A stretch of DNA of 64,000 nt from an uncultured virus (IMG/VR IMGVR_UViG_3300015360_000026) (lineage: Duplodnaviria; Heunggongvirae; Uroviricota; Caudoviricetes), in the IMG/VR virus record IMGVR_UViG_3300015360_000026, one strand, 5' to 3'. The notes beneath the pieces are model-generated. The model saw nothing but the letters and a program-made list of their open reading frames with translations, had not been told where the DNA came from and ran no database searches. A program made the position numbers and the translations under genes. Below, piece by piece: positions 35,768 through 62,193 of this stretch (the first letter of the stretch is position 1; every line of letters begins with the position of its first letter).

Positions 35768-35778
35768 TGCCTGTCTCC

Positions 35779-37065: not shown

Positions 37066-38671
37066 TGAGGATGCTCGTGTTAGGCGTTGAGATCCGGGTC
37101 GCCGTGATACCCTTCTCGATGTCGGTCAGTTCCTTCGTCTCGAACGGTTCCGTGTGCCCGGCGAGACGCTTCCGCAGAAGCGGCTTTAACGCCCCGGCGT
37201 GCTCGGCGGTCCGGGGAGCCAGCTGGGCGATTTCGTTGTACGCCGACACGACCTTATCCGGGTCGTGACCCGAGATGGGGTCGTCGGGGTCGGTCAACAT
37301 CGAGTTCAGCATGGCGTGAGTCTTGATCTTCCGCAACTCGTTCTGGTGCTGCGGGTCCTCCAGGTCGAGCCACGCATCCTCGATCAGATCGTTCTTGGTC
37401 TTGGGGTACTCGCCCAGGCCGCGACTGATCATCGACCCAATGGCCGAAGTGCTAATCTGGGAGAGGGCTCGCTTCTCGGCTCCCGGTGTGACCATAGCTT
37501 TTGCGGCCTGGTCCTTGATCTCCTCGATCGCCGCCAAGCGGTCTTCGTCCTCCGGGTCCGGCTCATCGTCTTCGATCGGGCCGCGAGCGGCAGGACCGCC
37601 GTGTTCGCCCTGGCCTATGCGGTTGAGGACCACGCCACCGCCGATGTCGCCGGCAGCGATAACCCCGGCGTCGATCAGGAGGCTCATCGGGGTGTGGGCA
37701 GCTTGCTTGGTCCCGCCCAGCAGGTTCCAGCTACTTGCGGAAGTAGACTGGTTTGGGGCCGTGGCCCTGCTGGACGGTTCCGCGAAAGGGACGAGGTGTC
37801 CCGAAACCTGGTCGAAGTAATCCTGTGCCTCCTTCGCCCACACACGGGCCTGGTTCACGTCCCGAGCCGCCTTGATGGCGGCGACGACGATCGTGAACGG
37901 CTCGTGGTGCAGGTCGAACGCAACCTTCTGGACGGGCGTCTTGTCGGCACCAGGCTCCCGCAACTTGGCCCGATCGTACGCCATCTTGCACAGATCGACA
38001 GCAAGGGGACCGTAGTACGTCTTGGCGGCGTGTTCGACCTGGGCGTACGGCAGACGGTAGCACGCTGCCTGCTTGAGGTACGAGGTCAGGTCGGCCACGT
38101 GGTGACGCAGCTTGTCTTCGCAGTCGGCCGCGTGCCGGCGTGACTCATCGGCCGCGTTCTTGGCTCGCTGGAACTTGCCGTAGTCCCGCTTGAGCACCGT
38201 GGCGGCTTCCGGTTTGGGTTTGGACACCGGCAGCACCTTGCCAGCCTTGGCGTCCGCCGCCGCCTTCTCCATGAGCGGGGTGTCCCGCCGCTGGGCTGCG
38301 AGCTTCCGCTCGTCGGGCAGCCACGTCGGCGGGGCGTTGTAGTCGGCGTCGAAGGCGACCTTGTGCATGGCCTCCTTCTTCGTGTCGACCTTCTCCGGGT
38401 AGACGGAGGAGACGATCTTGGCGGGGTCGCACAGCGGGTAGCTGGCGAGCTTGTCGAGGATCGACGTGTTGGCCCGCCACTGGCCGAGCTGTCGCCCCGT
38501 GTTGTAGGCCCGGCCCAGCATGGTAATCATGCCGGGGCCGAACTGTTCGTCGCGGGCCACCTTCTCGACCGCCTGGTCGGGACTCATGTTCTTCTGGTCG
38601 ACGTAGTCCACCGCCGTCTTGATTGCACTCAAGAGGCGGCGTTCGTCGCTGCTGGCAATTTCTTGTGGCAT
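37037..38671 (-). CDS. Hypothetical virion protein (K-x-A rich)
   Basis: Start moved to ATG 38671 (RBS GGAGG). Confidence 0.65.
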   Translation of the reverse strand: MPQEIASSDERRLLSAIKTAVDYVDQKNMSPDQAVEKVARDEQFGPGMITMLGRAYNTGRQLGQWRANTSILDKLASYPLCDPAKIVSSVYPEKVDTKKEAMHKVAFDADYNAPPTWLPDERKLAAQRRDTPLMEKAAADAKAGKVLPVSKPKPEAATVLKRDYGKFQRAKNAADESRRHAADCEDKLRHHVADLTSYLKQAACYRLPYAQVEHAAKTYYGPLAVDLCKMAYDRAKLREPGADKTPVQKVAFDLHHEPFTIVVAAIKAARDVNQARVWAKEAQDYFDQVSGHLVPFAEPSSRATAPNQSTSASSWNLLGGTKQAAHTPMSLLIDAGVIAAGDIGGGVVLNRIGQGEHGGPAARGPIEDDEPDPEDEDRLAAIEEIKDQAAKAMVTPGAEKRALSQISTSAIGSMISRGLGEYPKTKNDLIEDAWLDLEDPQHQNELRKIKTHAMLNSMLTDPDDPISGHDPDKVVSAYNEIAQLAPRTAEHAGALKPLLRKRLAGHTEPFETKELTDIEKGITATRISTPNTSILNDAPSGLLG

Positions 38672-38691
38672 AGGGCGGTCCTCCATAACCG

Positions 38692-40216: not shown

Positions 40217-42823
40217 TTAGTTACGGGCAGCTTCCTGCACACTCGGGTCGGACGGGTTGGCCATGTTACCGAACTGGCCGTCCATACCGCCACCGACTTG
40301 CTTCTCCTTGAGGAAGAGGCAGACGTCGCCCATGACCTCGAAGGCGTTGCGGAGGGAGTCTTCGAGTTCCGGCAAGTCCTGCTTGCCGTAGCGGTCCTCG
40401 AACTCCTCTTGGTGCCAGTAGAACATGAACAGGATGCGGCCCAGCTTGTCCAGGGCCTTCATCAGATCGCCCAGGTAGCGATCGACCAGGCTGTCCTGGC
40501 GGACGGCTTTGAGCATCCCCGAGATCATTGCCGTGTCGAAGACCTCTTTCTGGCCCGCCGCCCCGGCCTCCTGGGCCGTCTGCATCGCCTGCTGGTCGGG
40601 CTGGTAGAACGGGTCGTAGATCGTCGGGTCCGTCTTGGCGGACATCAGTTCGGGGGCCTGATGGAACTCCTCCTGCGGGTAGATCGCGTTGACCTGTCCG
40701 TTGCCGACCCGCTCCATGCCTTGCTCGGCCGGCGGGAACGCGGGAGCCCCAGGACCACCCGACAACGCAGACTGAGTCGGCCCGCCGAAGCCCTCGGCGT
40801 ACTTGATGCGGTAGGTCGCGGACCCCTTCTTCTCGGCCTGCCGCATGATGGCACGGGCCGACGCCTCGTCGGTGCCGTGGTCACGGACCAGGCTGATGAA
40901 CGCCGCCTTCTTGGTCATCCGGTGCTCGCGGCCATTCGCCTTGACGTACACGTCGCAGCCCCGGTCGAGGACGCGGATCGCCGCCGTCTTCTCGAACAAC
41001 ATGAGCTGCACGTCGTTGATGTTGCCGGGGTTGATCGGCCGCTCCTCGGTGCCGCTGCCGGGGTCGGACTCCGACATCGAACAACACGCGAGCAGGCCGT
41101 CCTCCTCACGCTTCTTCGGCTTGGGCGGGTCCTTGAGCTTGAAGACCTTGAAGTTCTTGGGCACGTTCAGCTCGCCACCGACGGACCGCAGCCCGGACCC
41201 TTCACGCGGGTTGATGTGCAACAGGACGTCATACGTCGAGACGTACTCCTCGCCCGACAGCCACCGGTTGTTACTGTGCGTCGGCGGCAGCCAGGTCGGG
41301 CGATCCTTGCCGTACGAACAGGCGTCCTTGAAGTCGACCCGATAGGTGTCGTCGTCGACCTTCTTGCGGACGCGGAACGGCGTGGTGCCCGCCCCGTTCT
41401 CGCCAACGGCCAGGTAATGGCCCTCCTGCTCCAGCGTGTCCGAGTCCGATACGCCCTTCCACCACTTCTGGAAGTCCGGGCGGTCGGGCTTGGCGTTGGG
41501 CTTCACCCACAGGTTGGAGGCGTGGATGTTCACCCAGTTCTTCGGGTCCGACAGGCGGATCACGGTGGCCCACTGCTCCCGGCCTCGGTTGGTCTGGGGG
41601 TGCATGATGACCAGCATCTCGTCGAACGAGCCCGGCTTCTCTAGGACGTCGAAGACCCCGGTCTCTCCGGGGTTGGTGAGTTCCATGCGGACCTGGGTGT
41701 CGTACACCTGGCTGACGCCCTGGGAGTCCCGCTTGTCCTTGATGAGGACGGTGTCCTTGAGGAGCTTCTCCCGCTCGTCGGAGTCCAGCTCCTCCTTGTT
41801 CTGGGTGAAGCCGCCGGGGGCATCCATGTCGACCTTGTTCTCGGTCGCCCGCTTGCCCATGGCCCCCGCGAGGGCGTCGTAGACGATGATCTGGAGGGCA
41901 CCGCTCTTGATCGGGTGCACGGCCGGCAGCGGGTCGGCGACGAGGGACCCGCCAACGCGGCGGTCGGCCGCGACCTTGGTTCGGACCGGGTCGACCTTCT
42001 TGATGAGTGACTTCGCGTCGGCCAACATGTCCTGGCCAAGTTTCAAGAAAAAGTCCCTGCCGTAGAACTTCTCGAAACCGGCTTTTAGGAGCGGGTGTCG
42101 CTGGGTCAACTCGAACGCCCCCTCGGCGAGCTTAATGTTCTCGCCCAAGAACCGCGTCAGAGTGAGCCGCTCGTCGAGGCCAGCGTGCTTCTGGAAGATC
42201 TTGTCGCTCTTGGTCGCGGCGGCACCAGCGAACGCCAAGAACGGGAGAGCCCACTCCTGGATGCGGGGCCGATAGTGGTCCGAGCCGTACTTCGACGACG
42301 TCGGCGGGTGCGACAGGCGATAGATGTCCGGCGGGACACCGCCGAGCTGGTAGGTGTCCTTGGGCGAAGCCTCGCCCAGGACGTGGGGCTTGCGGGAGAT
42401 CAGGTAGTTGACCCAGTTCTCCTTCATCGGCACGAAGGCGTCCTGCTTCTTGACGTACAGAAGCTCGTGGCCTTTCAAGTCGCCGTTCAAAAAGAACACC
42501 GGGGCGTAGAGCCACTGGTCGCCGACCTTGAACCCGAAGACGCCCATGGCCTTCGTGTTGTCCTCGTTCCGGTCGACGAGCTGAAAGCCGATGATGTAGT
42601 CGATGAGCCGGGGACTCTTGTCCTTCAGGTAGGCGTAGGCGAGCGAGGAGAAGGCTTGCTCGAAGCCCGACTCCTGCTCGCCGCCGATGGACGCCTGCTT
42701 GATCTTGGTGCGGTCGAGGTCCCGGACGGCCTGACGCAGGGGCGTCTTGGCCGACTTGGACGCCCAGTACCAGCCCTGGTCCGTGGATCGCTTCTCGAAT
42801 TTGGTCGTGGCGGTAATGCTCAT
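40217..42823 (-). CDS. Large hypothetical virion protein
   Basis: About 870 aa (start uncertain, 42823 or 42874); several K-x-A motifs. Confidence 0.65.
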   Translation of the reverse strand: MSITATTKFEKRSTDQGWYWASKSAKTPLRQAVRDLDRTKIKQASIGGEQESGFEQAFSSLAYAYLKDKSPRLIDYIIGFQLVDRNEDNTKAMGVFGFKVGDQWLYAPVFFLNGDLKGHELLYVKKQDAFVPMKENWVNYLISRKPHVLGEASPKDTYQLGGVPPDIYRLSHPPTSSKYGSDHYRPRIQEWALPFLAFAGAAATKSDKIFQKHAGLDERLTLTRFLGENIKLAEGAFELTQRHPLLKAGFEKFYGRDFFLKLGQDMLADAKSLIKKVDPVRTKVAADRRVGGSLVADPLPAVHPIKSGALQIIVYDALAGAMGKRATENKVDMDAPGGFTQNKEELDSDEREKLLKDTVLIKDKRDSQGVSQVYDTQVRMELTNPGETGVFDVLEKPGSFDEMLVIMHPQTNRGREQWATVIRLSDPKNWVNIHASNLWVKPNAKPDRPDFQKWWKGVSDSDTLEQEGHYLAVGENGAGTTPFRVRKKVDDDTYRVDFKDACSYGKDRPTWLPPTHSNNRWLSGEEYVSTYDVLLHINPREGSGLRSVGGELNVPKNFKVFKLKDPPKPKKREEDGLLACCSMSESDPGSGTEERPINPGNINDVQLMLFEKTAAIRVLDRGCDVYVKANGREHRMTKKAAFISLVRDHGTDEASARAIMRQAEKKGSATYRIKYAEGFGGPTQSALSGGPGAPAFPPAEQGMERVGNGQVNAIYPQEEFHQAPELMSAKTDPTIYDPFYQPDQQAMQTAQEAGAAGQKEVFDTAMISGMLKAVRQDSLVDRYLGDLMKALDKLGRILFMFYWHQEEFEDRYGKQDLPELEDSLRNAFEVMGDVCLFLKEKQVGGGMDGQFGNMANPSDPSVQEAARN

Positions 42824-42880
42824 GACTCCATCCGTGGATTCGGCTGTGTGTCTGCCATTCCTTCGGCACCGCACCGATGG

Positions 42881-44227: not shown

Positions 44228-47200
44228 TTACCGAAGCAAGCTCAGCCAGTCGGAGCCGCCCTTCTTCATAACCGCTGGAGTTCGGAACTTTGCAAGTTCC
44301 GGATAGCGGTCGAAGATGGCGTCCTTCTTCGGGTCGCCCGTCGAGCGAAAGTTGACCAAGTTATTGCAGTCCGCCTGCTGGAGCTGGAACTTCGACGCAA
44401 GCTCGGAGAGCTCGTCCTGGAACTTGTCAAAGATCTTGGCCTCGTCCACGGACAGTTGAGGCTTGACGGGGGTGGCGGGTGCTGCGGGAGCGGCCTTCTG
44501 GATCGGCGGGATCGACGGGGAGACGGACTCGTCGCCCTGGTAGCCCGGACCGGTCAACGGGGTCGTACGCCGGTTCGGGTAGGTGAGGTCGATCGGCCGA
44601 CGGGTGGACGCGGGCGGCATGCCGAGGTTCTGGTTGTATTGGTCCGCCACCTTGCGGTCCTGCTCGCGTTTCACCGCAGCGACCATCAGCGTCTTCGCGT
44701 AGTCGCCGTACATTGGCCCTTTAACCGGGTCGCGGCGGATGTTCGTAAGTTGGGTCGACGACAGTTTCGCCGGGTCTCCGTATTCCTTCAGAAATAGGGC
44801 CTGTTGGTCCGCCATCCGATTCGCCGAGGCAGCCTCCTCCTCCTTCACCTTGTGTTTTCGCTCGGTGGCCTCTTGCGAAAACTGGGCTTGGAACTTCTGG
44901 TCCAGTGTCTTGTGCCACTCGGGGTCGGTGACGTTCTGGGACCGGATCTCGGCGATGCGTTCTAGGGCTTTCTGCTTCAGCTCCGGCGGCGTGTCCGGAT
45001 TATTAGCCCGCCGGTGCAGCAACGCATACTCGCTAGCGGCGTTGTTCTGCTCGTCTTGGGCGATGTCGCGACGCTCTTGGATTATCGAGCCACCAGTGTG
45101 CCCGAGCAGCCGAGCCTGGTGGGCGGGGTTCAAGAAAAAGTTGGCGGCGTCACTGACAGGTGACTCCGACTTGCCGGCGAACAGGTTAAACGCATCTTGC
45201 AGGGACTGCTCGTTGCGATTTCTCGTGCCCTCGTAATTGCCGCCGATTGCGTTCCCGATATCCTCGCCCACATCGTTACCCACCATCAGCGGTCGCACGA
45301 ACTTGCCGAGGAACCCGGCCACGCCCATACGTCCCGGTACTGCCGGGACACCGGGAGCCGGATTGACCGCCTTAGTCCCGGCCAGGGCGTTGCCGATGCG
45401 AGAAAAGAGACTACCCTCGCTGCTGACGGTACGTAGGACACGACCGGTTGCCGCCGCAGTTAGCCCGCCTGCCGCCAGAGCCGCGGGAGCCGCCTTGGCC
45501 ACGTCAGCCAAACCGATATTCGGCATCTGCGGCCCGCTGTCGGCTTGATTCTGCCCCGGCATGACGCCGCCACCGGGGTGGTAGTATTCTTCCTGCCCGT
45601 CGCCGTCCTCGTCGCCGTCACCCGGAACACCGCCCATGCCTACCCCACGCCGGCCTGGGTACTTCGACTGCATGTTGTGGCCGTGGATCTGCCCGGTCAA
45701 GACACCCCAGGCGTTCTGATCGAGGCCGTGACCGATCGCCCCGATGCCGCCCTCTTCGATATGCTGCTGAGCCTGGGTAGGGTCCATGTGGTGTAGGTAG
45801 TTCTGGCCGCGTCGGAACCCGCCGTTGTACACGACCGGGTTCTGCTGCTGAGCCTTCTGCTGAATGTTGGCGGTCGTCGCCGTGCCGACGCCACCGACGT
45901 AATCGTACGACGGCTTCGGGGCCGCAGGGGAGGCCCCAGTTGAGGCCCCAGTAGGAGCCCCAGTCGCCGCTGGTGGCGAGACCTGCGGTGCAGGCGGCGG
46001 TGCAGGCGGCGGTGCAGGCGTCGTCTTCGGGGCGGTCGACGCGATCGGTTTGGGGGCAGTGGCCGGGTCGTCGGCCTTCTTCAACCGAGACTTCTTGTCC
46101 TCCGACCACTTCATTAGGCTGGCCCAGTTCTTCTTGGGGGCCGGTGCCGGTGCGGGTGCCGCCGGGTGTTTCGCGGCCACGGGCACGCTCGGTCCCGACA
46201 GGTCGGGTTTGCTGGTCGGCTCGGGCTGCCGGACCATACCGACCCGGCCGAAGTCCACGGCCCGTGACAGACCCGGAACAAAGGACGTGCCCAGCTCGTT
46301 CGACGTGCCGCCGCGTTGGGCCGCTTCGAGCAGGCTGGCCTTCTGCCCCGACCCGTACATCTTGGTCATCCAGTCGGGGTCGTGGGCGACGTTCGCCATG
46401 CCCCGGATCATCTCGGCCTGGAACGGCGGCGGCTCGGCGTGGACGGTGACGTTGTCGACACCGAAGTGCTCGAACTCCTTCAGCATCGACGGCCGGACCT
46501 TGGTGCCGATCGTGTGGTGTAAGATCGGCCGTTCTAGGTACTTGCCCAGGGCCTTCTTCGGGTGAACGGACTCGTGCCCGTCGCGGGGCTCGTAAGTGTG
46601 CTCCAGCGTCGAGTACGGGACGACGTCGTCCTGTACATGGTCGCCGTGCTCCTCGGTAAGCCGGACGTGGTTGATGAGGCCGCGTGACAAGACCTCCAGG
46701 TTCCGCCGGTTGACCTTGAGCCCGGCCCCCCGCATGGCGTCACGCATGGCCCCCATGAAGTACCGCCGGCCCTCACCGATGCCCTTGTGCTCGATCACGG
46801 TCGACGGATTCGGCCACCCGTCGGAGAGTATGTCACCAGCTTCGACCTGGTCTCCTGGTTTCACCCTCGGGTCGTACCCACGACCGACATAGTGCTGTTG
46901 CCCGTCGATGGTGATGAACTTGCCGCCCGCCGGGGCGTCCTCAATCCGCTGGACGATGCCGTCGACGGTGGAGTGGGCTGCACCGCCCTTGAACGTCTTG
47001 GGGGCCTGGATGAGCTGGTTGACGGCCTCGAAGCCGCTCACGGACTTCTCCTGACCGGCGACGCCGCCGGAGTGCTTGGCACTCAGCTGGCCTTGCTGGA
47101 GTGGCTCGGACAGGGCCTGGGCGGCTTGGAGGCCGATCTGCTCGCCCCGCCCAGGGAGACCGCCCCGCTCGCGAACGCCGACGTCACGGGAGTAGACACC

Positions 47201-48085
47201 GCCATCGGGTGAGCCGCCGACCAACGCACTGCGGACGAGGATCTTGTCGTGGCCGAGGGCCTTCATGTGTTTGAGGATCTTTGGCGTCAGCATCATGTGC
47301 CGCTTGTACGGCCCGACGTCCTGGGCCAGGAGGGCACCCTCACTGTCCATGTCGTCGACATCGACTGGGAGGCCCCGGTTGGCAGGGTACTCCTGGTCGT
47401 GGTCGAGGGCACTGACCATGAGCCGGTGGCTGATCTGGTTCAACTGCTTGGACAGGAAGCCAGCGTCCTGGGTGGCGAACTTGGTCGCCATGACGCCCTT
47501 GCGGGCACCGTACGTGCCAGCCCAGTATTCGGCCGGAGTGAGCCCCTGGCTGTACGAGCGTATCACAGGCAGGGGGATGACGTTGTCGTGGTGGTCGGTG
47601 TACAGCATGTCGCTGCCACGGAGCGACGACAGGTTCATCTCGTTGCCGCGACTGCCCGACTGGACCTGACGGGCCAGGGGGTTGCCCTCGGCGAGGGACT
47701 CGGCGTACACGTCCTTCATCTGCTGATCTTGTGCAGCCCCAGCCTTCCGGATGATGAGTTCGTGCCGCTGCGTGTCGGTGAGCTTGTCGTCGTTGAGGAT
47801 CTTGTCGATGTCGCCCTGGAGGCTGACGCCGATCTTGTGGGCCGACTTGGCCTTGAGGAGGTGTTCAAGGGAAAAGCTGTTGCCGCCCGAGCGGGTGGCG
47901 ACGTGCCGGCCGACGTCGGCCAGCTTCTTCGAGACTTCCAGATACTTCTCGGGGCTCTTCTCAGCGATCTCCCGGAGAAGGGCGTTCATGCCCTTCTTGT
48001 CCATCACCCGGTCGTAATTGCGGTACTCCTCCGGCAACGCTTCGTTGATGAGGAGCTGACCCATCGTTGTGCGGAGGGGAGGCAT
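44228..48085 (-). CDS. rpoC: RNA polymerase beta' C-terminal subunit with long low-complexity extension
   Basis: SGSRGN, bridge helix GLTPAEYW..GARKG..TKFATQDAGFLSKQL, trigger loop IGLQAAQALSEPLQQGQLSAKHSGG, jaw V.PGDQVEAGDILSDG.PNP. Confidence 0.85.
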   Translation of the reverse strand: MPPLRTTMGQLLINEALPEEYRNYDRVMDKKGMNALLREIAEKSPEKYLEVSKKLADVGRHVATRSGGNSFSLEHLLKAKSAHKIGVSLQGDIDKILNDDKLTDTQRHELIIRKAGAAQDQQMKDVYAESLAEGNPLARQVQSGSRGNEMNLSSLRGSDMLYTDHHDNVIPLPVIRSYSQGLTPAEYWAGTYGARKGVMATKFATQDAGFLSKQLNQISHRLMVSALDHDQEYPANRGLPVDVDDMDSEGALLAQDVGPYKRHMMLTPKILKHMKALGHDKILVRSALVGGSPDGGVYSRDVGVRERGGLPGRGEQIGLQAAQALSEPLQQGQLSAKHSGGVAGQEKSVSGFEAVNQLIQAPKTFKGGAAHSTVDGIVQRIEDAPAGGKFITIDGQQHYVGRGYDPRVKPGDQVEAGDILSDGWPNPSTVIEHKGIGEGRRYFMGAMRDAMRGAGLKVNRRNLEVLSRGLINHVRLTEEHGDHVQDDVVPYSTLEHTYEPRDGHESVHPKKALGKYLERPILHHTIGTKVRPSMLKEFEHFGVDNVTVHAEPPPFQAEMIRGMANVAHDPDWMTKMYGSGQKASLLEAAQRGGTSNELGTSFVPGLSRAVDFGRVGMVRQPEPTSKPDLSGPSVPVAAKHPAAPAPAPAPKKNWASLMKWSEDKKSRLKKADDPATAPKPIASTAPKTTPAPPPAPPPAPQVSPPAATGAPTGASTGASPAAPKPSYDYVGGVGTATTANIQQKAQQQNPVVYNGGFRRGQNYLHHMDPTQAQQHIEEGGIGAIGHGLDQNAWGVLTGQIHGHNMQSKYPGRRGVGMGGVPGDGDEDGDGQEEYYHPGGGVMPGQNQADSGPQMPNIGLADVAKAAPAALAAGGLTAAATGRVLRTVSSEGSLFSRIGNALAGTKAVNPAPGVPAVPGRMGVAGFLGKFVRPLMVGNDVGEDIGNAIGGNYEGTRNRNEQSLQDAFNLFAGKSESPVSDAANFFLNPAHQARLLGHTGGSIIQERRDIAQDEQNNAASEYALLHRRANNPDTPPELKQKALERIAEIRSQNVTDPEWHKTLDQKFQAQFSQEATERKHKVKEEEAASANRMADQQALFLKEYGDPAKLSSTQLTNIRRDPVKGPMYGDYAKTLMVAAVKREQDRKVADQYNQNLGMPPASTRRPIDLTYPNRRTTPLTGPGYQGDESVSPSIPPIQKAAPAAPATPVKPQLSVDEAKIFDKFQDELSELASKFQLQQADCNNLVNFRSTGDPKKDAIFDRYPELAKFRTPAVMKKGGSDWLSLLR

Positions 48086-49346: not shown

Positions 49347-50099
49347 CTACGCCGCCGGACGCCGACGAAGGCTGGCGATCATGGCGGCTTTGTTCATGGT
49401 CTCTTCCAGGCCCTTGTGGGAGTACGCCACGCCCGCGTCGGCAGCCGCCTTGCCGCCGCCTCCGGGTGGTGCACCGCCCATGTCGGGCTGCCCGCCCATC
49501 GGGGGCATGCCGCCGGGGGCACCCATGGCCGAGTCCTGCTGCCCGCCGGACTGCTGCTTCGCGGCCATCTGGGTCAGATCGGTCGGCGTGGCGATCATCT
49601 CGCTGGCCGGGATCTTGACACCGAGGGCGTCCGCAATGCGGGCGATCATCTTCGACATCTGCATGATGGCGACGTTGACGTCGATCTTGGGCTTGATCTG
49701 CCCGGCCATGTTCGAGCCAGACTGAGCCGACCCGCCCTGGACGGCCTGGAGGATCTGGTCCATCTTGGCCGTCATCGCCGGGTCGCCGCCACCCCCGCCG
49801 CCCGGAGGCGGCATCGGAGGCATGCCCATCATGGACGGGTCCATCGGAGGAGCACCGCCGCCGGACGGGTCACCGCCGGGAGGCGGGCCACCCATCATAG
49901 ACGGGTCCATCGGAGGGGCACCGCCGCCCATGGACGGATCGCCGCCAGGAGGAGGGGCACCACCGCCGCCGGTCATGGAGGGGTCACCACCGGGCACGAA
50001 CGCGAGTTTGGTGAAGTTCGCCGACATCTTGCGGCGGGCTTCCTTCACCAACTCGGGGTTACACAGGTGGTCGCCGTAAGGCGTCATCAATTGGCTCAT
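49347..50099 (-). CDS. Gly/Pro/Met-rich low-complexity protein
   Basis: GGGAPPMDPSMMG repeats. Confidence 0.65.
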   Translation of the reverse strand: MSQLMTPYGDHLCNPELVKEARRKMSANFTKLAFVPGGDPSMTGGGGAPPPGGDPSMGGGAPPMDPSMMGGPPPGGDPSGGGAPPMDPSMMGMPPMPPPGGGGGGDPAMTAKMDQILQAVQGGSAQSGSNMAGQIKPKIDVNVAIMQMSKMIARIADALGVKIPASEMIATPTDLTQMAAKQQSGGQQDSAMGAPGGMPPMGGQPDMGGAPPGGGGKAAADAGVAYSHKGLEETMNKAAMIASLRRRPAA

Positions 50100-50169
50100 G
50101 GAAATCCCTTTCCCGCAGAGGATACCGTATCGAGTTCAAGTTTACTGCAACGCCACGCCACAGAGAAGA

Positions 50170-51918
50170 CTACTCCATGATGTGCACGGGAGTGTCCTCG
50201 GTGATCTCGCCCTGGTGGAGGGCCGCGAGGGCGTCCTGCTTGTTCCGGAAGACGCGGGGCCGACCCTTCTCCTTCTTGGCCGTGCTGGCGTGGTGCAAAC
50301 CGCCCAGGTACTCCTGGCCGGGCACGTGCACGGGGCTCTTGAAGTCGGCCGGGGATAGAAGGTTTTTCGACGGCAGCATCCGCTCCAGGGCCTCCTTCTT
50401 GGCCTCCTCGGAGGTCGGCACGTGGAACTGCATGGCGTCACCGTCGAAGTCAGCGTTGAACCCCTTGACGATCAGCGGGGACACCTGCATCGTGTCGCCC
50501 TTCACCAGCTTGGGGCGAAACGCCATGATACCGAATCGGTGGAGAACGGGTGCCCGATTGATGAACACCGGACGGTCTTCCATCTCCTCCTGGAGGATCG
50601 ACCGGGCCTTGTCGGTCTTATCCTTGACGTGCTGGAGGGCCTGGCTGATCGGCATCCCCTGGCGGTGCATCCGCCGGACGAGGAACTTGGAGTACACCTC
50701 GAACGCCTTCGACTCGGGGATGCCTACCGTGTCCATGTCGTAGTCCGGGTTCGGGCTGATCACCGCCCGGCCGACGTTGTCGACAGTCGAGGACAGGAGC
50801 TTCCTTTGCACCGTGCCGAACTTGGGGGACGTGCCGAAGATGCTCTTCAAGATGCCCTTGACGTTCTTGTCCTGGCTCTTCTGGGTGATCGGATCGCCCA
50901 GGCCGGTGACCGCCTTGAAGGCGTGGTACACGGCCAACCGTTCGGCCCCCGCGTTGTCGTGGCCGACCATGCCCTTCATCTCGCCGAGGTTCTTGTTGGC
51001 CTCGATCAGCTCCTTGTAGAGGTAGTTCGGGTCCGATACCAGCGGGATGCCCGACTGCCCCATCATCGACACCGGGCGGAACGCAGGAGGCAGGACGGGG
51101 GCGTGATCGAGCATCCAGTCCTTGGGGTGCAGGCCGAGGCTCTGGGCACTCTTCAGGTAGCCGAGCTTGCGAACCGCCTCGTCCCGCTTACTACGACTCG
51201 ACGACTGAACCTGGGTCCTAGCGGTCGCCAGCTCCTTGGTCAGGTTGATGTCCTCCAACGCGGCCTTGAGGGCCTTCGGGCCGGTGCCGTGCCCGCCAAT
51301 CGTCTCAGTGCCCGCCAACACGCCCTCGAACTGCTTGGCCGTCAACCCGAGGATTCGCCGCATCGGCTCCTCCATGACAGGGTTGGGCATGGGCTCGTCG
51401 AACTTAATCTTCGACCACTGCTTGCCGCCGTGCCCGCCGGTCATCGCCGGGTCGAACAGACCCCCGGCCACTGGCTTCAAGTCCCGGTCGAAGTTGACCG
51501 TCTCGCCGTGCGTAAGGACGCGGTTGCCGCCCAAGGCGTCCACGTCCTTGTTGGTCATGGCCATGATGTGAGTGCGAGGGCCATCCCGGACGACATTGAT
51601 CCCGGACGCCTTGAGCTGGTGGTGGAACTTGTCGTACACCATCGGGGTCTTCACAGCACTGGGCATATGTCCCTGCATGAACTGCAACCAGTATTGCTCG
51701 TTCCGCTGACCCCGGATACTGCCCACGTCCCGGAGATTCTCGACGGCCCCGTGGGACAGGAGGGCATTCACGTCGAGCATCGAGATCCGCTTGGAGTTCG
51801 ACACCAGGACGTTGTTGGCGAAGTACAGGTGGATGCCGTCGACAGTGACGTCGTACACGTCGACCAGCCCGTTCGCCTTCGTGACGCCCCGGTAAGGGCC
51901 GATGTACGCCACCTTCAT
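50170..51918 (-). CDS. rpoC: C-intein + RNAP beta C-terminus + beta' catalytic N-terminal half
   Basis: NADFDGD catalytic motif, NRAPVLHRFGIMAF, GRAVISP, PVLPPAFRP, GLFDP; N-terminal 41 aa intein C fragment. Confidence 0.9.
   Translation of the reverse strand: MKVAYIGPYRGVTKANGLVDVYDVTVDGIHLYFANNVLVSNSKRISMLDVNALLSHGAVENLRDVGSIRGQRNEQYWLQFMQGHMPSAVKTPMVYDKFHHQLKASGINVVRDGPRTHIMAMTNKDVDALGGNRVLTHGETVNFDRDLKPVAGGLFDPAMTGGHGGKQWSKIKFDEPMPNPVMEEPMRRILGLTAKQFEGVLAGTETIGGHGTGPKALKAALEDINLTKELATARTQVQSSSRSKRDEAVRKLGYLKSAQSLGLHPKDWMLDHAPVLPPAFRPVSMMGQSGIPLVSDPNYLYKELIEANKNLGEMKGMVGHDNAGAERLAVYHAFKAVTGLGDPITQKSQDKNVKGILKSIFGTSPKFGTVQRKLLSSTVDNVGRAVISPNPDYDMDTVGIPESKAFEVYSKFLVRRMHRQGMPISQALQHVKDKTDKARSILQEEMEDRPVFINRAPVLHRFGIMAFRPKLVKGDTMQVSPLIVKGFNADFDGDAMQFHVPTSEEAKKEALERMLPSKNLLSPADFKSPVHVPGQEYLGGLHHASTAKKEKGRPRVFRNKQDALAALHQGEITEDTPVHIME
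51796..51918 (-). other. Split intein C-terminal fragment (IntC, 41 aa)
   Basis: Block F VYDVTVDGIHLYFAN, block G VLVSN followed by Ser+1. Confidence 0.85.
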
Positions 51919-52319
51919 CGCTGCTTCCTCGTCCAGAAGTCGTGTAGGCCGGACAGGGCTTGGCCGGTCATGCCACGCAGCTTCATCATCAGACTCCGCT
52001 GCATGGCCCGACGGGGGTCGATGCTCTGGGGCGTGGCGGCTTCGACCGGGGCCGGCTTGGCTGCCGGCTTGGCCATCGGCTTACCCGGCCTCGCCCGCCG
52101 CCGGGGCGTGGGCTTCTCGGAAACCTCGCCGAACCTTTGGAACTTGACCGGGGCGAACGGTAAGTCGACCGGCGGACGGTTGCCCGCCGTCATGAGCGTC
52201 TGCTGGCCTGCCCCGAGGGGTGAGCCCGACTGCCCCTCGCCGGGGTCGGCCGGGTCGACGGCAGCCGTCTTCATGCGGAGAGCTGCCGCCTTGGCCGCGA
52301 GAATGTTGAGCCCGTCCAT
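51915..52319 (-). CDS. Hypothetical protein between the split-intein halves
   Basis: 134 aa; TGATG overlap with the beta gene and ATGA overlap with the IntC gene; basic, Pro/Ala-rich. Confidence 0.65.
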   Translation of the reverse strand: MDGLNILAAKAAALRMKTAAVDPADPGEGQSGSPLGAGQQTLMTAGNRPPVDLPFAPVKFQRFGEVSEKPTPRRRARPGKPMAKPAAKPAPVEAATPQSIDPRRAMQRSLMMKLRGMTGQALSGLHDFWTRKQR

Positions 52320-52618
52320 CACGCCCCCTGTAGTTCGTCGCCGACGACCAGGTCGCCGGCCAGTTTCCTCGATCCGTCCGCCAGGATGATCTCGTGGTTC
52401 CTGGTGACCTCCAAAACACGGCCAGTGTCGGTCACGACCTCCATGATGTCGATCGGCTTGACGGCGAACGTGAACCAGTCGACGACCGGCATCCACATGA
52501 GCTTGCCGCCCGTGGCTTTCTTGGTCAGGACGTTGATGGCCAGTTTCTTCTGCACGACCTCGGCGATCGACACCAGGCCGCTCGACTCGGTATGGAGGAA
52601 AACCCGCTCGGTGAAGCA
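52319..52618 (-). other. Split intein N-terminal fragment (IntN, 99 aa)
   Basis: Block A CFTERVFL (Cys1 codon at 52616-52618), block B LEVTRNHEI (TxxH), tail AGDLVVGDEL. Confidence 0.85.
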
Positions 52619-55435
52619 GCCGCTCTCGCCGCCCTTGCTGGGCGTCTCGTCCATGCCGTACCCGCCGCCGCCACGACCCTGGCCCTTGCTTTCGGCCGTG
52701 TGGTGCAACTTCATAAAGAACCGGTTGCCCGTGTGGACGCCGGGGATCTTGGACCCCGTGGCCGGATCGACGATGTCCTCGGTCGAAGTCAGGCCGTGCT
52801 TCCGCAGCTCGTCAATCGTGAACTGGTTTAAGTCCTTGATGCTACCGAAGTCTTCCAGCTTGTACCTCTTGCCTGTCAACGCGGCAATCTTGCCTAGCTG
52901 GGCCTCGACCATCTGGGCTGGATTGGTACGACTGATCACACCGAGGGGGTTGAGCAGGATCTCGTAGGGCTTACCGTTGCGGTCGTGCGGCATCTGGTGG
53001 TCGGGGACGACGGCACTGATGACGCCCTTGTCGCCGTACCGGCCGGAGAGTTTGTCACCCACCTGCATCTGTGAAGAAGACTTAACGAGGACGACAGGCC
53101 CGTCCTTGCCCCGTACGACGTCGGTAACGACCCCAGAATCATGATGCTGCCACACAACGGATTGGTCATTGTGTCCCGCCTGCTTCTTCTTGTGGACCTT
53201 GTTGTCTGCCCGGTCGTTCTCGCGTGCGGCCAAAATGAGAGGTTGGCCGTGCTCGATTTTGGTGCCAGGTTTGATGATGCCGTCGTCGTCGAGGGACGCC
53301 AGCGTCTCCCGGTCAAACTTGCCGGGGAACAAACTGATGAAGTTCTTCTTCCCCATCTTGTGCTTGTCGTCAACCATCACCTCGTGGTGGTACATGTGGT
53401 CGCTCGACAGCCGCTTCGCCGCCGTCTCCGAGATGACCTGAGCGTCCTCGAAGTTGTACCCCTTCCACGGCGTGTACGCCACGCGGAAGTTCGCACCGAG
53501 GGCCGCAGCCCCGGTGTGGTCGGTGTAGTTGCTCTTGGCCAAGAGCTGGCCCGCTTTGAATGTGTCCCCTGGCTTCAGTGCAGGAGTATTGTGGATGTAC
53601 GTCTTCCGGTTGAAGGGAAAGTTGTGATAGAGATCGACACGATCTTTGCGTCCGTCTGCGTATTGGACGTCCATCCCTCCGTCACTGATCCCAAGGACCC
53701 GACCCCCGTGTTCACCAGCATGCACGGCCCCGAGATGACGTCCGTATTCTTCTTCAAAAGATCTCGCTCCACCCGATCCTGGAAGGCCCGATTGAACCAG
53801 GGGTGCTTCTGCGTTCGTAAGTGGTAGTGCTTGAGTGAGCATCCGAGACGCCATAGCGACCCGTTGCCCTTTGACCATGCTCTTGAGCGGGACCATGTTG
53901 CCCAGGGGCGAGAAGGCATTCTCAAAGTGGGGCAACTCGAATTGGACTTCGTTGCGTGGGACATATGCGATCTTGCCTCCCTTCATGACCGGGATACGTT
54001 TCGCGGTCGACGCCAGTCCGCCGGGGAACGCGATCGCCGCCTCGGCCAGGTCCTGGGGGCTCTTCCAACCAAGCCTACCCGTCCTAACGTCCCGGAACTC
54101 GGAGTACATGCGACCGTCGCCGCCTTTTCGTGCCCCCCGAGCCATGTTCAGGTCGATGCCAACGCGGAAACTCTCGGGCGTCCGCAAGGGGTCCATGAAC
54201 CCCATATGACCGGGCTGCACGCTCCGGGCGTCGTCGGGAACCGACTCCATCGACGGGATGCCGCCTTCACCCAGGCGGGTGATCCGGCTCTGCTTGTCGA
54301 ACACCTCGGCAGGGTTGATCTCTTCGATCGCCTGGCCCAGGCCAGAGCCCAGGAGCGTCTGCTCGATTTGCCGGGTCAGTGCCCCTGACGGCATGTCTTT
54401 CAGGTGTCCCTTCATGCTCATCTTGTGAAACAGCATCTTCTGGACGCGACCGTGGTCGCGGGCCACCCGCTCGGAGATCAGGTCCTCGGGACCCAGCACG
54501 GTCTGGAAGTGCGGGGCGTCCCGGTCGTCGACTTCGTCCTCGCCCCGACTGACGGCCAAGAGCTTCTTGGTTGCCGCCAGGATGGTGTCCTTATTCATCC
54601 GGGTGTGGGGGTGTTTGAGCGTGTACTTGGTGACCTCGGGGTCGACCTCCATGTCCTCGAACTTCTTGACCAGGGCCAGGCGACGGTGCTGCTCGTCTGG
54701 GTTGTCCCGGTCGACCTTACTCAGAATCTTGTTCTGGAGCTTGGTCAGTACCCCGCCCTCAGACTTGAGCATATTGCTCTGGTACAGCTCGGACCCCCAG
54801 TGCTCATACAGCTCTCGGTCGGTCGTACCCATCGCCTTCAGGAGCGGCAGCAACGGCATCTCAGCTTGGCCGATCTTGATCTTGAACACGCCCTTGGCCG
54901 GATCGAGCAGGTAACGGTGGGAGACGCCCTTGCCGGGCAGGATGTTGGCGTGGGACTCCAGCTCACCGTTGTCCTTGCGACGGGTGAAGACACCGGGCAT
55001 GAGCCGCTGCTGGTGGTTCAAAGTGTAATCGTTACCGCCGTGGACAAACGTGCCCATGTTCGTCAAGTGAGGGACGCGGGCGATAACCTGCTCACGGCGA
55101 TCGACGAGAGCACCCGTGGCGTTGTCGGTCAACTCCCACGTGCCCTTCATGCGGCGGGCCAGGGTGCCGCCAGTCAGGAGGGCTTGCTTCCGTTGGTCGA
55201 TACTGAAGTGGTCAGGGTCGATGTACTCCGGACTGTGGAGCCGGAGAGTGTGCCGGACGTTGGAAACCGGCTGAATGCCCTGAGCCGCCTTCAGGACGTT
55301 GCCGTAGATGTTCTGCCGCGTCTTGACGTGGTCGCCAAAGTCGCGGATGTGGGACTCCGGAAGCACGGGCGGCGGTGGCGGCGTGCTGCCGGGCAGGAGG
55401 GACGGACCCTTATCGGGGATGAGACTGTCAGGCAT
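52319..55435 (-). CDS. rpoB: RNA polymerase beta subunit (N-extein) + N-intein
   Basis: HMGFMDPLRTPES, MASRMLTQALPL, GYNFEDA, GDKLSGRYGDKGVIS, LNPLGVISRTN, FMKLHH. Confidence 0.92.
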   Translation of the reverse strand: MPDSLIPDKGPSLLPGSTPPPPPVLPESHIRDFGDHVKTRQNIYGNVLKAAQGIQPVSNVRHTLRLHSPEYIDPDHFSIDQRKQALLTGGTLARRMKGTWELTDNATGALVDRREQVIARVPHLTNMGTFVHGGNDYTLNHQQRLMPGVFTRRKDNGELESHANILPGKGVSHRYLLDPAKGVFKIKIGQAEMPLLPLLKAMGTTDRELYEHWGSELYQSNMLKSEGGVLTKLQNKILSKVDRDNPDEQHRRLALVKKFEDMEVDPEVTKYTLKHPHTRMNKDTILAATKKLLAVSRGEDEVDDRDAPHFQTVLGPEDLISERVARDHGRVQKMLFHKMSMKGHLKDMPSGALTRQIEQTLLGSGLGQAIEEINPAEVFDKQSRITRLGEGGIPSMESVPDDARSVQPGHMGFMDPLRTPESFRVGIDLNMARGARKGGDGRMYSEFRDVRTGRLGWKSPQDLAEAAIAFPGGLASTAKRIPVMKGGKIAYVPRNEVQFELPHFENAFSPLGNMVPLKSMVKGQRVAMASRMLTQALPLTNAEAPLVQSGLPGSGGARSFEEEYGRHLGAVHAGEHGGRVLGISDGGMDVQYADGRKDRVDLYHNFPFNRKTYIHNTPALKPGDTFKAGQLLAKSNYTDHTGAAALGANFRVAYTPWKGYNFEDAQVISETAAKRLSSDHMYHHEVMVDDKHKMGKKNFISLFPGKFDRETLASLDDDGIIKPGTKIEHGQPLILAARENDRADNKVHKKKQAGHNDQSVVWQHHDSGVVTDVVRGKDGPVVLVKSSSQMQVGDKLSGRYGDKGVISAVVPDHQMPHDRNGKPYEILLNPLGVISRTNPAQMVEAQLGKIAALTGKRYKLEDFGSIKDLNQFTIDELRKHGLTSTEDIVDPATGSKIPGVHTGNRFFMKLHHTAESKGQGRGGGGYGMDETPSKGGESGCFTERVFLHTESSGLVSIAEVVQKKLAINVLTKKATGGKLMWMPVVDWFTFAVKPIDIMEVVTDTGRVLEVTRNHEIILADGSRKLAGDLVVGDELQGA

Positions 55436-58543: not shown

Positions 58544-59683
58544 CTAGTGAAACAGTTTCGGCACAACTGACCCGATGAGGCCGAGAGCGGCGACACCCTT
58601 GCCGATTTGGCTGAAGGTGTAGGGCGTGCCGACCACCTGGTTTAGCACCGCTCCGACCCAAGCCCCAGTAAGGTAATCTTTCCCCGCGTTCATTGCTAGT
58701 TGACCTAGCTGCCCGCCCGTGACGTGTCCGGGACTGCTCCGCTCGTCAGGCAGTTGCTGGGCCGCGTACATGGCCCCCATCGTCGTCGCGGCGAGGTCCG
58801 GTGACGCCCCCGACTCCCACAGCGTCTGACCGAGGGCGTTGATGTTGACGTCGTACGGCGTGCGGTGCCGATGGTCGCCGCCGCCGAACATGTCCCCGAA
58901 CGCCCGCTTTACAAACGAGTCGCAAGCACCCTTGTAAGCATCGCCCACCTGTGGGGCGAGCAGGTGCTTGTTCGAGAACTCTTGGCTGTACTCTTCGGTC
59001 TGTGGGCGGCTGGTGCCGGCGAGTCGGCTTTCCAGGAGACTCGGCCGATCGAACTTAGGCGAGTCCGACAGCTGCTCGATCGGTGGGGTATCCAGCGGGT
59101 GCGGGTCGAGGAGGGAGTGGCCGGTCGCATGATTGGCGTACGCCCAGGCAGCACCGGGAGCCGCACCCGCCAGAGCACCGAGAATGGCTCCCGTCCGCTT
59201 CAATTTCTTGCCGTACTTGTGCGGCATTAACGCTTCAGCCAGAGAGCCAACACCATAACCAAGACCACCGCCCACCAATCCGGTCGTAAGCATCGCAGCC
59301 AAAGGACTCGGGGCGTTAGGGATTCCACCGGGGTAGGTTCCTGGGAAGAAGTTGAGGAGTTCACCGGCCCGCCGCAGCGTCTCGCTGTAGGCGACCTTGA
59401 CCCAATCGCCACCCGTGGCCTCATCCCGAGTCAGGTAAGTCTCCCGCACGTGATCGGCACCGACCGCCCGCTCGGCGGCACGCTTACACCGCAGGGCATC
59501 AGGCCGATGGAAGTCGATAGACGTACGCGGGAACAGGGCGACCTGATCGCGGTCCGGGCTATAGAAGTAATCGACGGGGTACTTGGTGAAGATCGACGCT
59601 GCCGCCTGCTTCACGTCCCAGCACGGTGCCGCCGTCTTCACGACCCAGGCATCCAGGCGGGGGATCACGTCTTCCCAATCCAT
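58544..59683 (-). CDS. Putative internal virion protein with glycine-zipper helices
   Basis: KTAA, KQAA and KRA motifs; GLVGGGLGYGVG, GAILGALAGAA. Confidence 0.65.
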   Translation of the reverse strand: MDWEDVIPRLDAWVVKTAAPCWDVKQAAASIFTKYPVDYFYSPDRDQVALFPRTSIDFHRPDALRCKRAAERAVGADHVRETYLTRDEATGGDWVKVAYSETLRRAGELLNFFPGTYPGGIPNAPSPLAAMLTTGLVGGGLGYGVGSLAEALMPHKYGKKLKRTGAILGALAGAAPGAAWAYANHATGHSLLDPHPLDTPPIEQLSDSPKFDRPSLLESRLAGTSRPQTEEYSQEFSNKHLLAPQVGDAYKGACDSFVKRAFGDMFGGGDHRHRTPYDVNINALGQTLWESGASPDLAATTMGAMYAAQQLPDERSSPGHVTGGQLGQLAMNAGKDYLTGAWVGAVLNQVVGTPYTFSQIGKGVAALGLIGSVVPKLFH

Positions 59684-59766: not shown

Positions 59767-62094
59767 CTACAGCTCACACTTGTCCCCGCTGCACGCATAC
59801 GTCCGAGAACCCGTGGTGGTGTCGACCTCCTCGTACCGTGGCAGCTTCGCCCAGTCGATGACCGGGAACTTCGCAGCCAGCTCGTTGTACTGCTCCTCGG
59901 TGACCACCTCGTTGGGAGCCGCCTTGTAGCTGCCGTTGTCCCACGGCAGGAAGGAGATGCCCGTAATCTCGTCGAAGTGCTCCCACACCCACGTGCCAAC
60001 CGCAGGCCACTCATGGTCCTTGACGTAGATCGTCACCGAGCAAGAGTGATCCGCCCAGTGCCGTTTCCACAGCAACCAGTTCTCCAGCTGCTGCATGGCC
60101 GTCACGTCTTCGCGGAGGGTGCAGCCCTCGGGGTTCTTCTTGATCCACGAGAACGCGACCAGGGACGGGTCTTCGGGGGCCACCTCCCACGGCACGCCCG
60201 ACTCCTTGAGGAACTTGCACATCGGGGTGTGCATCGACTCGCGGGTCCGACGGATCTGGTGGCGACCGAACCGTGGCGACAGACCCGAGCCGCAGTCGAA
60301 GAACACGGCCGAGTCGCCGCTGGGCTTCACGGTGGTGTCGGCTGCCGACCGGTTGATGCCGAACCGTTTGGCCAGCATCTCGTTCGTCTCGGTCACGATC
60401 TGCTTGAGGGCCGTCAGCAGTTCCTCGCGACCGGGAGCACCCGGCTGGAGCAGCGGACAGTCCGCGTGGCCGGTGATGTCGACGCCGAGCAGCCGCTCCT
60501 CGTCGCAGTTCTTCTTCCAGTCCTTGCGGATGTACTGGAAGTTGGTGCAGCACGACTGGAGGGTGCCGAAGTAGGTCGCCGCCCGCACCTTCTCCATCAG
60601 CGTTTCCTTCGTGTCCTCCCGGCGGGCAACGGCGATCGAGAGGTTGCAGAACTGGAACGGCCGGAGCACGATTTCCGCACACGGGTTGCATCCGAACTTC
60701 CAGTTCTTGCGGCGGGCCGGGCGGTGTTTGCGGCACGCCTCGCGGTTGAAGATGCCCCGCTCCCCGGACTTCGACTTCACGAGGGCCAGCCACTCGTCCA
60801 TGAAGTCCTCGACCGGGGGCTTCTCGTTGTACGCGGCCGAGTTGTTGGCCATCGACAGGAAATCCCGATCACGCCACCACTCGCCATGCTTGGCGTGCCG
60901 CATGTTGCGGCTGTTCAGGTCGGAGATGGAGATGCAGGACGCACGCCGTACGCCGCCCACCTGGACGATCTTGCCGATCATGCAGCAGATGCAGTGGACA
61001 TCGTAATCCGACAGGCGGCGACCCTGAGCCGCCAAGATGACGCCACGCACGAACGTCAGGAGCTGGACGAGGGGTTCCGGACCTGACGACCGCCCACCCT
61101 TGGTAATCAGGCGTGTGCCCGCCTTCCGCACGTCGTTCGTGTCGAACTCCACGTCCTCGCCCGAGAACCACTTTGTGATCCCGAACAGCAAGGCGTCGCA
61201 CCACCCCTCGGTGGAATCCTTGACCTTGTACTTGTACTTCTTGGCGTGCTTGCCCTTCCCCTGCCGCTTGACGCGGGGGAGATCGTCAACGTAGTCGGTC
61301 TCGACCGAGAAGCCGCCGCCGGTGCCCTGCATGAGGATGTAGAGCAACTCGGCAAACGAGAAGAGATCCTTGATCGGGTGGTAGGCACAGTTGTAGGCAC
61401 CGACGTGGCACCGTTCGAGGGCAGGACCGGCCATCTGCACGACACGCATCGCGGGGCTGGACTTCAGCTCGAACATCATCTTGCGGAGCCAGACGACCTC
61501 CTCGGACTTGAGGTGGCCGAACTGCGGGATGGTGCCGAACCAGTCGAAGACGCGGTTGTTGCACTCTTGCCACGTCTCGCGGCGGTTGTCCTTCTCACGC
61601 CACCGGGAGAACTTGGAAAGGAACTGGTAATACTGGAGCGGGCTGGGGAAGTGCTGGGCGTCTTCGGTGATCGCCTCAGTAACGTGGGCCGGGATCGGCC
61701 GTTCCTCGCGAGTCTTACGACGCTCCTCGCGGTACAGCGTGTATTGCTCGGCAGCTTCGGCCAAGCCGTCCGCCCACAACTGAGTAATGACGGCCCGCTG
61801 CACCTCTTCGATCGTCATCGCCGACACGCTCTGGGCGGCGAAGTAATTCACGACTCTGACGGTGACGGCCTCGACCGTGTCGTGCGAGTCGTCAGGCGTG
61901 ACGTTGAGTCCGTTTTGAAAGCAGCGGGTGACGGCGTGGCGAATCTTGGTACAGTCGAACGGCTCGGTGCGGCCGTCGCGTTTGGTGACCTTCCAGTCCT
62001 GGGACAAAACTTCCGGGGTGAGCGTCTTGCCGTTAGCGTCCTGACGGCTCTGGTAATTACGACGCGACGACGCACTTGCAACGCCATGACTCAT
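59767..62094 (-). CDS. nrdJ: Class II (adenosylcobalamin-dependent) ribonucleotide reductase with N-terminal ATP-cone
   Basis: VTKRDGRTEPFD ATP-cone; AYNCAY, GTGGGFSV, GGVRRAS, NPCAEI..FQFCNL, TVKPSG, C-terminal CSGDKC; start at ATG 62094 (RBS GGAGG). Confidence 0.88.
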   Translation of the reverse strand: MSHGVASASSRRNYQSRQDANGKTLTPEVLSQDWKVTKRDGRTEPFDCTKIRHAVTRCFQNGLNVTPDDSHDTVEAVTVRVVNYFAAQSVSAMTIEEVQRAVITQLWADGLAEAAEQYTLYREERRKTREERPIPAHVTEAITEDAQHFPSPLQYYQFLSKFSRWREKDNRRETWQECNNRVFDWFGTIPQFGHLKSEEVVWLRKMMFELKSSPAMRVVQMAGPALERCHVGAYNCAYHPIKDLFSFAELLYILMQGTGGGFSVETDYVDDLPRVKRQGKGKHAKKYKYKVKDSTEGWCDALLFGITKWFSGEDVEFDTNDVRKAGTRLITKGGRSSGPEPLVQLLTFVRGVILAAQGRRLSDYDVHCICCMIGKIVQVGGVRRASCISISDLNSRNMRHAKHGEWWRDRDFLSMANNSAAYNEKPPVEDFMDEWLALVKSKSGERGIFNREACRKHRPARRKNWKFGCNPCAEIVLRPFQFCNLSIAVARREDTKETLMEKVRAATYFGTLQSCCTNFQYIRKDWKKNCDEERLLGVDITGHADCPLLQPGAPGREELLTALKQIVTETNEMLAKRFGINRSAADTTVKPSGDSAVFFDCGSGLSPRFGRHQIRRTRESMHTPMCKFLKESGVPWEVAPEDPSLVAFSWIKKNPEGCTLREDVTAMQQLENWLLWKRHWADHSCSVTIYVKDHEWPAVGTWVWEHFDEITGISFLPWDNGSYKAAPNEVVTEEQYNELAAKFPVIDWAKLPRYEEVDTTTGSRTYACSGDKCEL

Positions 62095-62193
62095 GGCATC
62101 TTCCTCCGACAAATTGGGGATGGGAACAAAACACCAGTGCCGACCTGTCCCGCGATTCCTTCCGGACAGACCTACCGCACCCGCATCCTCGAC

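Follow-up and report, generated by a model that had tools for sequence, protein, structure and literature searches.

A split intein in the β-β′N RNA polymerase chain of an uncultured phage

Introduction

The split inteins of cyanobacterial DnaE end in Ser-Asn with a block F histidine and without a penultimate histidine, and are followed by cysteine at the +1 position; gp41-1 and NrdJ-1 are of the Cys1/Ser+1 type. In jumbo phages, archaea and plastids the RNA polymerase (RNAP) often has split subunits. The split-intein hosts named in the main text of Dassa et al. (2009, PMC2677866) are gp41, IMPDH, DnaE, NrdA, NrdJ, ligase and terminase, and split inteins of PolB are the subject in PMC6892783 and PMC10189870. 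The fastest known split-intein tools include gp41-1 and NrdJ-1 (rates in PMC11766414).

The inteins described in the second-largest RNAP subunits of eukaryotes and viruses by Goodwin et al. (2006, PMC1635734) are contiguous, and the word ‘split’ does not occur in the accessible text of that paper. That of the mReC phage paper (Weinheimer and Aylward 2020, PMC7481178) mentions neither inteins nor a split; the moraphage paper (PMC12619734) was set aside since its accessible part contains no RNAP. In a search of mainly open-access literature no naturally split intein was found described for an RNAP. A polymerase of the kind discussed here is found in Salmonella phage Arash (gp206 and gp216) and in the Vibrio phages D69, D148 and D181, all of which have the same fused β-β′N chain and a separate β′C; the word ‘intein’ does not occur in the Arash paper (PMC10585845). 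Here we analyze a locus at which such a chain is encoded in two parts, each of which carries one half of an intein.

Results

The locus

The DNA analyzed (the window) is a stretch of 64,000 nucleotides from an uncultured virus. It lies inside a genome that is a single contig of 208,145 bp with 62.5% GC, found in microbial-mat DNA runs of 2018 that probably belong to one campaign. No RNA run is among those listed for it, which has no bearing on expression. The genome encodes a baseplate wedge, and a major capsid protein (30558-31496, minus strand) that is 30% identical to Arash gp226 and to those of the three Vibrio phages.

All the components of the split gene are on the minus strand. An ORF of 1038 aa (52319-55435) comprises residues 1-939 of RNAP β, the N-extein (52619..55435; Pfam Rpb2_6, Rpb2_3 and Rpb2_2, NCBIfam rpoB), and a 99-aa tail beginning at Cys940. 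This tail is the N-intein, IntN (52319..52618 with its stop codon, the intein itself being 52322-52618; Cys1 codon 52616-52618). It contains the block B residues Thr72 and His75 (Thr1011 and His1014 in the full ORF; His codon 52394-52396) and ends in an acidic tail. The last residue of the N-extein is the Gly just ahead of the conserved switch-3/region-I Arg. The AF2 model of the N-extein resembles bacterial β chains with a TM score of about 0.7, and a fold search with the full model returned only β chains among the matches listed.

The second polymerase ORF is of 582 aa (50170-51918). It opens with the 41-aa C-intein, IntC (51796..51918), which has Asp23 and His30 in block F and ends in Val-Ser-Asn41, without a penultimate histidine. 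Ser+1 (Ser42 of the ORF; codon 51793-51795) is the first residue of the 541-aa C-extein (50170..51795), which contains the last ~70 residues of β followed by the N-terminal half of β′ with its NADFDGD motif (50437-50457, at aa 488 of the ORF). Between these ORFs lies a spacer gene of 134 aa (51915..52319) without a nuclease domain. Its ATG overlaps the stop codon of IntN and its own stop overlaps the ATG of IntC, and a GAGG-type site precedes the IntC start. The C-terminal half of β′ is encoded by a separate gene of 1285 aa (44228..48085; Pfam Rpb1_5 and Rpb1_4 with TIGR02386, matched part aa 4-482). The two-chain layout, β plus a β′N with NADFDGD and a separate β′C, is therefore found here. 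The β′C gene is about twice the length of Arash gp216 (606 aa), and its extra C-terminal half is of low complexity, being preceded by a stretch rich in Lys that contains a KxA site; this half may therefore be a fused, cleavable passenger.

A scan of positions 50000-52700 gave no promoters and two terminator-like sites, against 2.3 expected. GTDB genome contigs, when scanned by pattern, contained no match and so offered no clue to the host. Further along the window there is a class II (B12-type) ribonucleotide reductase with an ATP cone (59767-62112, minus strand), to which the RNAP-intein HMMs gave no match.

Identity and conservation of the intein halves

A first reading of the locus, made from the sequence only, had placed a 99-aa N-intein with Cys1 and TxxH at the end of the β gene, and a 41-aa C-intein ending in Ser-Asn and followed by Ser+1 at the start of the next RNAP gene. 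Both assignments hold; the 134-aa gene between the halves was no part of that reading. Cys1, Gly-1 and the TxxH block are each present in 61 out of 61 IntN relatives (the pattern allowed PxxH, but none was seen), and none of the 79 IntC relatives lacks the block F Asp, the terminal Asn or Ser+1. This conservation is found in a divergent set, with a mean pair identity in sampled pairs of about 41% for IntN and 51% for IntC, and lengths ranging over 92-130 and 37-46 aa, respectively. The block F His is more variable, being present in 62 and absent in 17 of the 79 IntC sequences.

Comparison with Hint and intein HMMs agrees with the assignment. TIGR01443 (intein_Cterm) passes, with 16.9 bits against a cut-off of 15.6; TIGR01445 (intein_Nterm) falls below, with 21.9 bits against 24.5; and PF14890 matches the halves with E of 0.05 and 0.02. 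These library matches are weak, though consistent. Npu DnaE or Mtu RecA intein chains make up 15 of the 17 PDB sequence matches of IntN (E 0.002-0.05), and a six-row IntN profile lifts them to E 4e-7. The contiguous allele P0145 matches PT-HINT, Intein_splicing and Hint. HMMs built from the relatives, leaving out the window protein and its nearest relative, match just the two halves in the 208-kb genome (E 1.7e-24 and 6.3e-15). Thus by its sequence this is a class-1 intein, with an in-frame insertion, Cys1 and TxxH, the block F Asp, the terminal Asn, Ser+1 and homology to Hint. The exception is the penultimate histidine, which is replaced by Ser here and is present in only one of the 79 IntC sequences; active inteins that lack it are known, with a Gly-Asn end (PMC1635734). 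The halves lie on separate genes, each joined to its own extein, and the break is at the position of the endonuclease. We regard the split intein in the β-β′N chain of this phage as confirmed at the level of the coding sequence.

The residue at the +1 position differs between alleles. The site reads Gly followed by Ser or Ala in the intein-free alleles, with Ala at +1 in 13 of 88, compared with Ser in all 79 that carry IntC (Fisher p 0.0002, a value inflated by shared ancestry). IntN is net acidic in 54 of 61 sequences. Of the 79 IntC sequences 19 have a net positive charge, and only the first strand of IntC is basic. In the window pair the overall charge is −2 for IntN and 0 for IntC, with −5 in the IntN tail and +3 in the IntC head. 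As judged from these sequences, the charge complementarity of the halves is local only.

Modelling of the two halves together supports their association: the predicted IntN-IntC complex scores 0.74, compared with 0.00 for the best of three controls, although the score may echo the likeness to solved split inteins and not the binding of this pair. At least 94% of contacts are shared between runs, and the partner pLDDT is at least 75. In a benchmark the mark applied to this score was reached by 116 of 157 solved pairs and by two of 215 mismatched pairs.

The splice site

We find the joined exteins to be colinear with their homologues, as had been anticipated, with the intein-free relatives aligning straight through the site. 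The expected product of ~1480 aa is matched too; 939 + 541 gives 1480, and 51 full-length intein-free homologues have a median of 1478 aa (range 1452-1501). The N-extein is 60-64% and the C-extein 68-70% identical to three tested intein-free homologues. Arash gp206 (1525 aa, about 30% identity) matches as one piece across the site. In two relatives (L036 and L032) the C-extein frame ends at 463-469 aa instead of about 540.

An alignment of an intein-free relative to bacterial β shows that the junction separates the two Gly residues of GGQR, two residues ahead of the conserved Arg. We take this to be between G1266 and G1267 of E. coli (our own count), at the end of switch 3 and beside the template-binding Arg1269; the conserved segment that holds the break presumably adjoins the nucleic-acid channel. 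About 70 residues of β remain after the junction. The second gene therefore opens with the end of β, and splicing would repair β without fusing subunits. The idea that splicing creates the β-β′ fusion must consequently be given up: the break is inside β, and the sequences indicate that a fused β-β′N chain is the norm of the Arash-like lineage.

The spacer gene

The 134-aa spacer has no Pfam or PHROG match and was assigned to no family, and the 637-aa spacer of another split locus, L164, has no Pfam match. A free-standing homing endonuclease was considered and rejected, there being no nuclease match where this was tested. From sequence comparison the spacers are a small family tied to split loci, in which (L/M)RxKxA occurs near the N-terminus and the C-terminus has a conserved Trp-x-Arg. 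The content of the gap is variable, comprising a gene of 95 aa in L162, one of 637 aa in L164, and 31 nt without a gene in L165/L166. The spacers of the window, L162 and L164 share their N-termini (0 of 2000 shuffles scored as high in all three pairs) and their C-termini (0, 0 and 12 of 2000). A spacer profile run against 1.84 billion representatives gave seven matches, of which two were members of the query, one (P0261) was dropped as a repeat artefact and four were new members. Each of the four has a longest contig equal in size to that of a split-intein protein. The (L/M)RxKxA motif is found at residues 14-21 in 7/7 spacers. Spacer HMMs gave no homologue elsewhere in the genome, nor in the flanks of intein-free loci. 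In the 31-nt gap of L165/L166 the frame ahead of IntC resembles the C-terminus of a spacer (Trp...Arg-Arg-Gly...Gly-Gly), and is possibly the remnant of one that was deleted.

Three genes immediately upstream of that for the capsid protein are enriched in KxA motifs, with 14, 18 and 15 occurrences against 4-5.4 expected (floor p 0.003 among 214 genes tested, uncorrected). The KxA-rich genes lie at 32692-38686 (minus strand), and also at 40217-42874 and 58544-59683. This suggests that the motifs are sites for a head protease (prohead protease). For one of these genes, of 502 aa (34259-35767), Atlas gave no family, with prohead-protease clusters below threshold at 0.89. Our guess is that the spacer might be a packaged head protein.

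Alleles at the site

How is the site occupied in related polymerases? Among the 120 matches listed for the second ORF, 79 start with IntC, 33 are intein-free, seven are truncated and one is unclear. Among the 120 listed for the end of the first ORF, 62 end in IntN (the window protein included), 56 are intein-free and two have contiguous mini-inteins. Apart from the window, these lists thus provide 61 IntN and 79 IntC halves at the same Gly-Ser site. For 31 of the 61 IntN proteins the longest contig is equal in size to that of an IntC protein (read by eye). Eighteen longer proteins include 15 that are intein-free at the site, two with contiguous inteins and one that ends in IntN.

Contiguous inteins at the site range from mini-inteins to full-length elements. 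A 379-aa intein carries LAGLIDADG_2 (E 1.5e-14). Full-length inteins of LAGLIDADG type are found in L085, confirmed by Pfam, and by sequence in L167, L041 and P0241 (396 aa); L163 (217 aa) and the mini-inteins of P0145 (138 aa) and P0172 (161 aa) are also contiguous. Further contiguous inteins occur at other RNAP sites in P0074, P0043, P0078, P0083, P0093 and P0079. That of P0074 is just 17 residues past the split junction, so that its C-precursor would need both trans- and cis-splicing.

Four other split loci, of three genotypes (L162, L164 and L165 = L166), have gaps of 31 nt to 1.9 kb and differing frames. Scans with an extein pattern gave 101 readable junctions from 161 loci, duplicates included; 99 were intein-free, two contiguous and none split. 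Split loci were found only by a pattern containing the IntC end, which gave six loci, four split and two contiguous. The query therefore biases the share of split alleles among the listed relatives, which must not be read as their prevalence. On the sequences, the split marks a subclade.

Phylogeny of the exteins

The split alleles all fall in one clade, with FastTree support of 1.0 in the tree of 133 N-exteins and 0.92 in that of 192 C-exteins. The same clade also holds intein-free alleles and two mini-intein alleles. The nuclease-bearing L167 and L041 are outside it in both trees; L085 is outside in the N-extein tree and inside in the C-extein tree. An IQ-TREE analysis of a 40-row subset gives the split-containing clade a support of 80/99, and its starred branches force at least four changes of the split label. 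A clade of split alleles only is rejected by the AU test (p 5e-33) on 22 rows, which had been chosen after seeing the trees.

The contiguous mini-intein P0172 nests among split alleles in the N-extein, C-extein and IntN trees, with IQ-TREE supports of 98/92, 100/100, 100/100, 99/98 and 96/99, and both its halves score best against split relatives of its own subclade. The spacer of its sister L162 has homologues in the window and at L164, both distant loci, from which it follows that the split predates P0172. The nesting of this contiguous allele and of several intein-free alleles suggests re-fusion and loss.

Discussion

We think it very probable that a naturally split class-1 intein (Cys1, Asn and Ser+1, divided at about 100 + 40 residues) acting by trans-splicing is the best explanation of this locus, from the sequences and the modelling taken together. 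In such a scheme a single operon, in which stop codons overlap start codons, would yield the two precursors. IntN and IntC would fold together into a Hint domain, and the four standard steps would follow, comprising an N-S shift at Cys1, transfer to Ser+1, cyclization of Asn and an O-N shift. Gly939 would thereby become joined to Ser+1, giving a chain of ~1480 aa, which in intein-free relatives is the product of a single gene. Packaging of the polymerase in the virion, as in Arash, would then be probable. In the virion preparation of Arash the homologous gp206 was detected more than any other protein, which according to the authors may reflect packaging or carry-over (PMC10585845), and splicing ahead of packaging is therefore plausible by analogy. 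The proposal that the intein acts as a post-translational switch on transcription finds no support here; the stop-to-start overlap of the three ORFs suggests constitutive, coupled and roughly equimolar synthesis.

Could the locus work in any other way? The two halves might serve as a non-covalent clamp, the polymerase functioning as unspliced or merely cleaved pieces. This lineage already makes β′ from two genes, and many RNAPs tolerate being split, yet every splicing residue, including Ser+1 and the terminal Asn, is invariant over 61-79 diverged alleles; moreover the conserved segment that is broken adjoins the nucleic-acid channel, and a retained domain of ~140 aa should interfere there. We therefore judge the clamp improbable. 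Joining before or during translation, by RNA splicing, ribosomal bypass or frameshifting, would yield a mini-intein that splices in cis, and the gap of only 31 nt in L165/L166 would be in keeping with this. But other gaps reach 1.9 kb and hold a conserved protein-coding gene, all 79 IntC sequences have their own Met or Val start 37-46 residues ahead of the junction, with the GAGG-type site here, and Rfam gave no matches in the window, L162, L164 and L165. This is a very improbable route. There is hardly any prospect that the locus is a decaying pseudogene or an assembly artefact. The sole contig spanning the whole stretch (run X1, depth 114, with no difference) may be the very source of the window, but both extein-intein junctions are unchanged in contigs of run X6, and the same two ends are found in a distinct genotype (P0122/P0001, 89-95% identical) and the layout in dozens of distant ones. 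Each RNAP part is present as a single copy in the 208-kb genome, and the intein codons keep its GC3 bias (0.88 and 0.95). Mis-assembly of a contiguous intein, the danger that the sequence-only reading had named, is thus not what is seen, and such replicates have largely refuted this explanation already.

The history of the split is less certain than its existence. A LAGLIDADG intein may have invaded the site and lost its nuclease, and a single split of the intein would then have followed, probably when the spacer gene was inserted, to be inherited by a large clade. The simplest history that the sequences allow is one split, followed in some lines by loss of the spacer, re-fusion and loss of the intein. 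In its full form, to which we incline slightly, one ancient insertion of a head-protein-like gene split the intein of a virion-packaged RNAP, and the split was kept across a diverged clade and yet was reversible, by spacer loss (L165), re-fusion (P0172) and precise intein loss (P0193, P0236 and P0188/P0207/P0228). It is possible, if rather doubtful, that no split was ever reversed, and that contiguous mini-inteins split many times independently or that recombination from outside supplied the nested intein-free alleles. Phages recombine freely, the deep branches of the split clade are weak (80/99 in IQ-TREE), P0145 is not placed firmly and has an intein that groups with L163, and P0172, P0193 and P0236 are known from protein sequence alone. 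Such a history has to contend with the nesting of P0172 in three trees and the best matches of both its halves to split relatives, as well as with the spacer of L162, whose homology to those of the window and L164 indicates that the split predates P0172.

Two aspects of the locus are new. On its sequence relationships the spacer is no homing endonuclease and belongs to a small family that goes with split loci. In the trees, moreover, the split clade includes one contiguous mini-intein and several intein-free alleles as nested branches. The short list of hosts for natural trans-splicing would gain a bacterial-type multisubunit RNAP, with the site inside β. Since all the allele states coexist at one site, it becomes testable how splitting can proceed without a lethal intermediate and whether a split can be undone. 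If our reading is true the family documents the whole life cycle of an intein as it occurs in nature, with the return from the split state included. It offers dozens of diverged Cys1/Ser+1 split pairs for tests of speed and orthogonality, and would amount to a library of 60-80 such pairs, some of them perhaps mutually orthogonal.

How does this intein compare with those already described? The likeness to the cyanobacterial DnaE IntC seen in the sequence-only reading is partial. The fragment sizes and the Ser-Asn end agree, but the +1 residue is Ser here and Cys in DnaE. The split at about 100 + 40 residues is that of Npu and Ssp DnaE, and Npu DnaE is among the best PDB matches of IntN. The DnaE halves lie at separate loci, however, whereas those of the RNAP are adjacent. 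In addition the DnaE break has been termed a ‘single, irreversible breaking event’ (main text of PMC2677866), in contrast to the apparent reversals in the RNAP family. The RNAP inteins of Goodwin et al. likewise occupy conserved sites near the cleft of a β-type subunit, including the hybrid-binding and anchor domains, but Cre RPB2-a is followed by Cys and the intein here by Ser (PMC1635734).

The fractured genes of Dassa et al. provide a close parallel, on the main text of PMC2677866. There too a host-N segment with IntN, a middle gene, and IntC with the host-C segment follow on one strand, and the break separates the N-terminal from the C-terminal motifs at the place that nucleases occupy. 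The middle gene overlaps IntC and is missing at some loci, and the origin is phage. The phrase ‘RNA polymerase’ does not occur in that text, and multisubunit RNAP is thus not among its hosts. There the middle gene encodes a GIY-YIG or Vsr-like nuclease, unlike the spacer here. Lastly, the gp41-1 to -7 proteins of that study are 89-100% identical, compared with about 41% for pairs of RNAP IntN.
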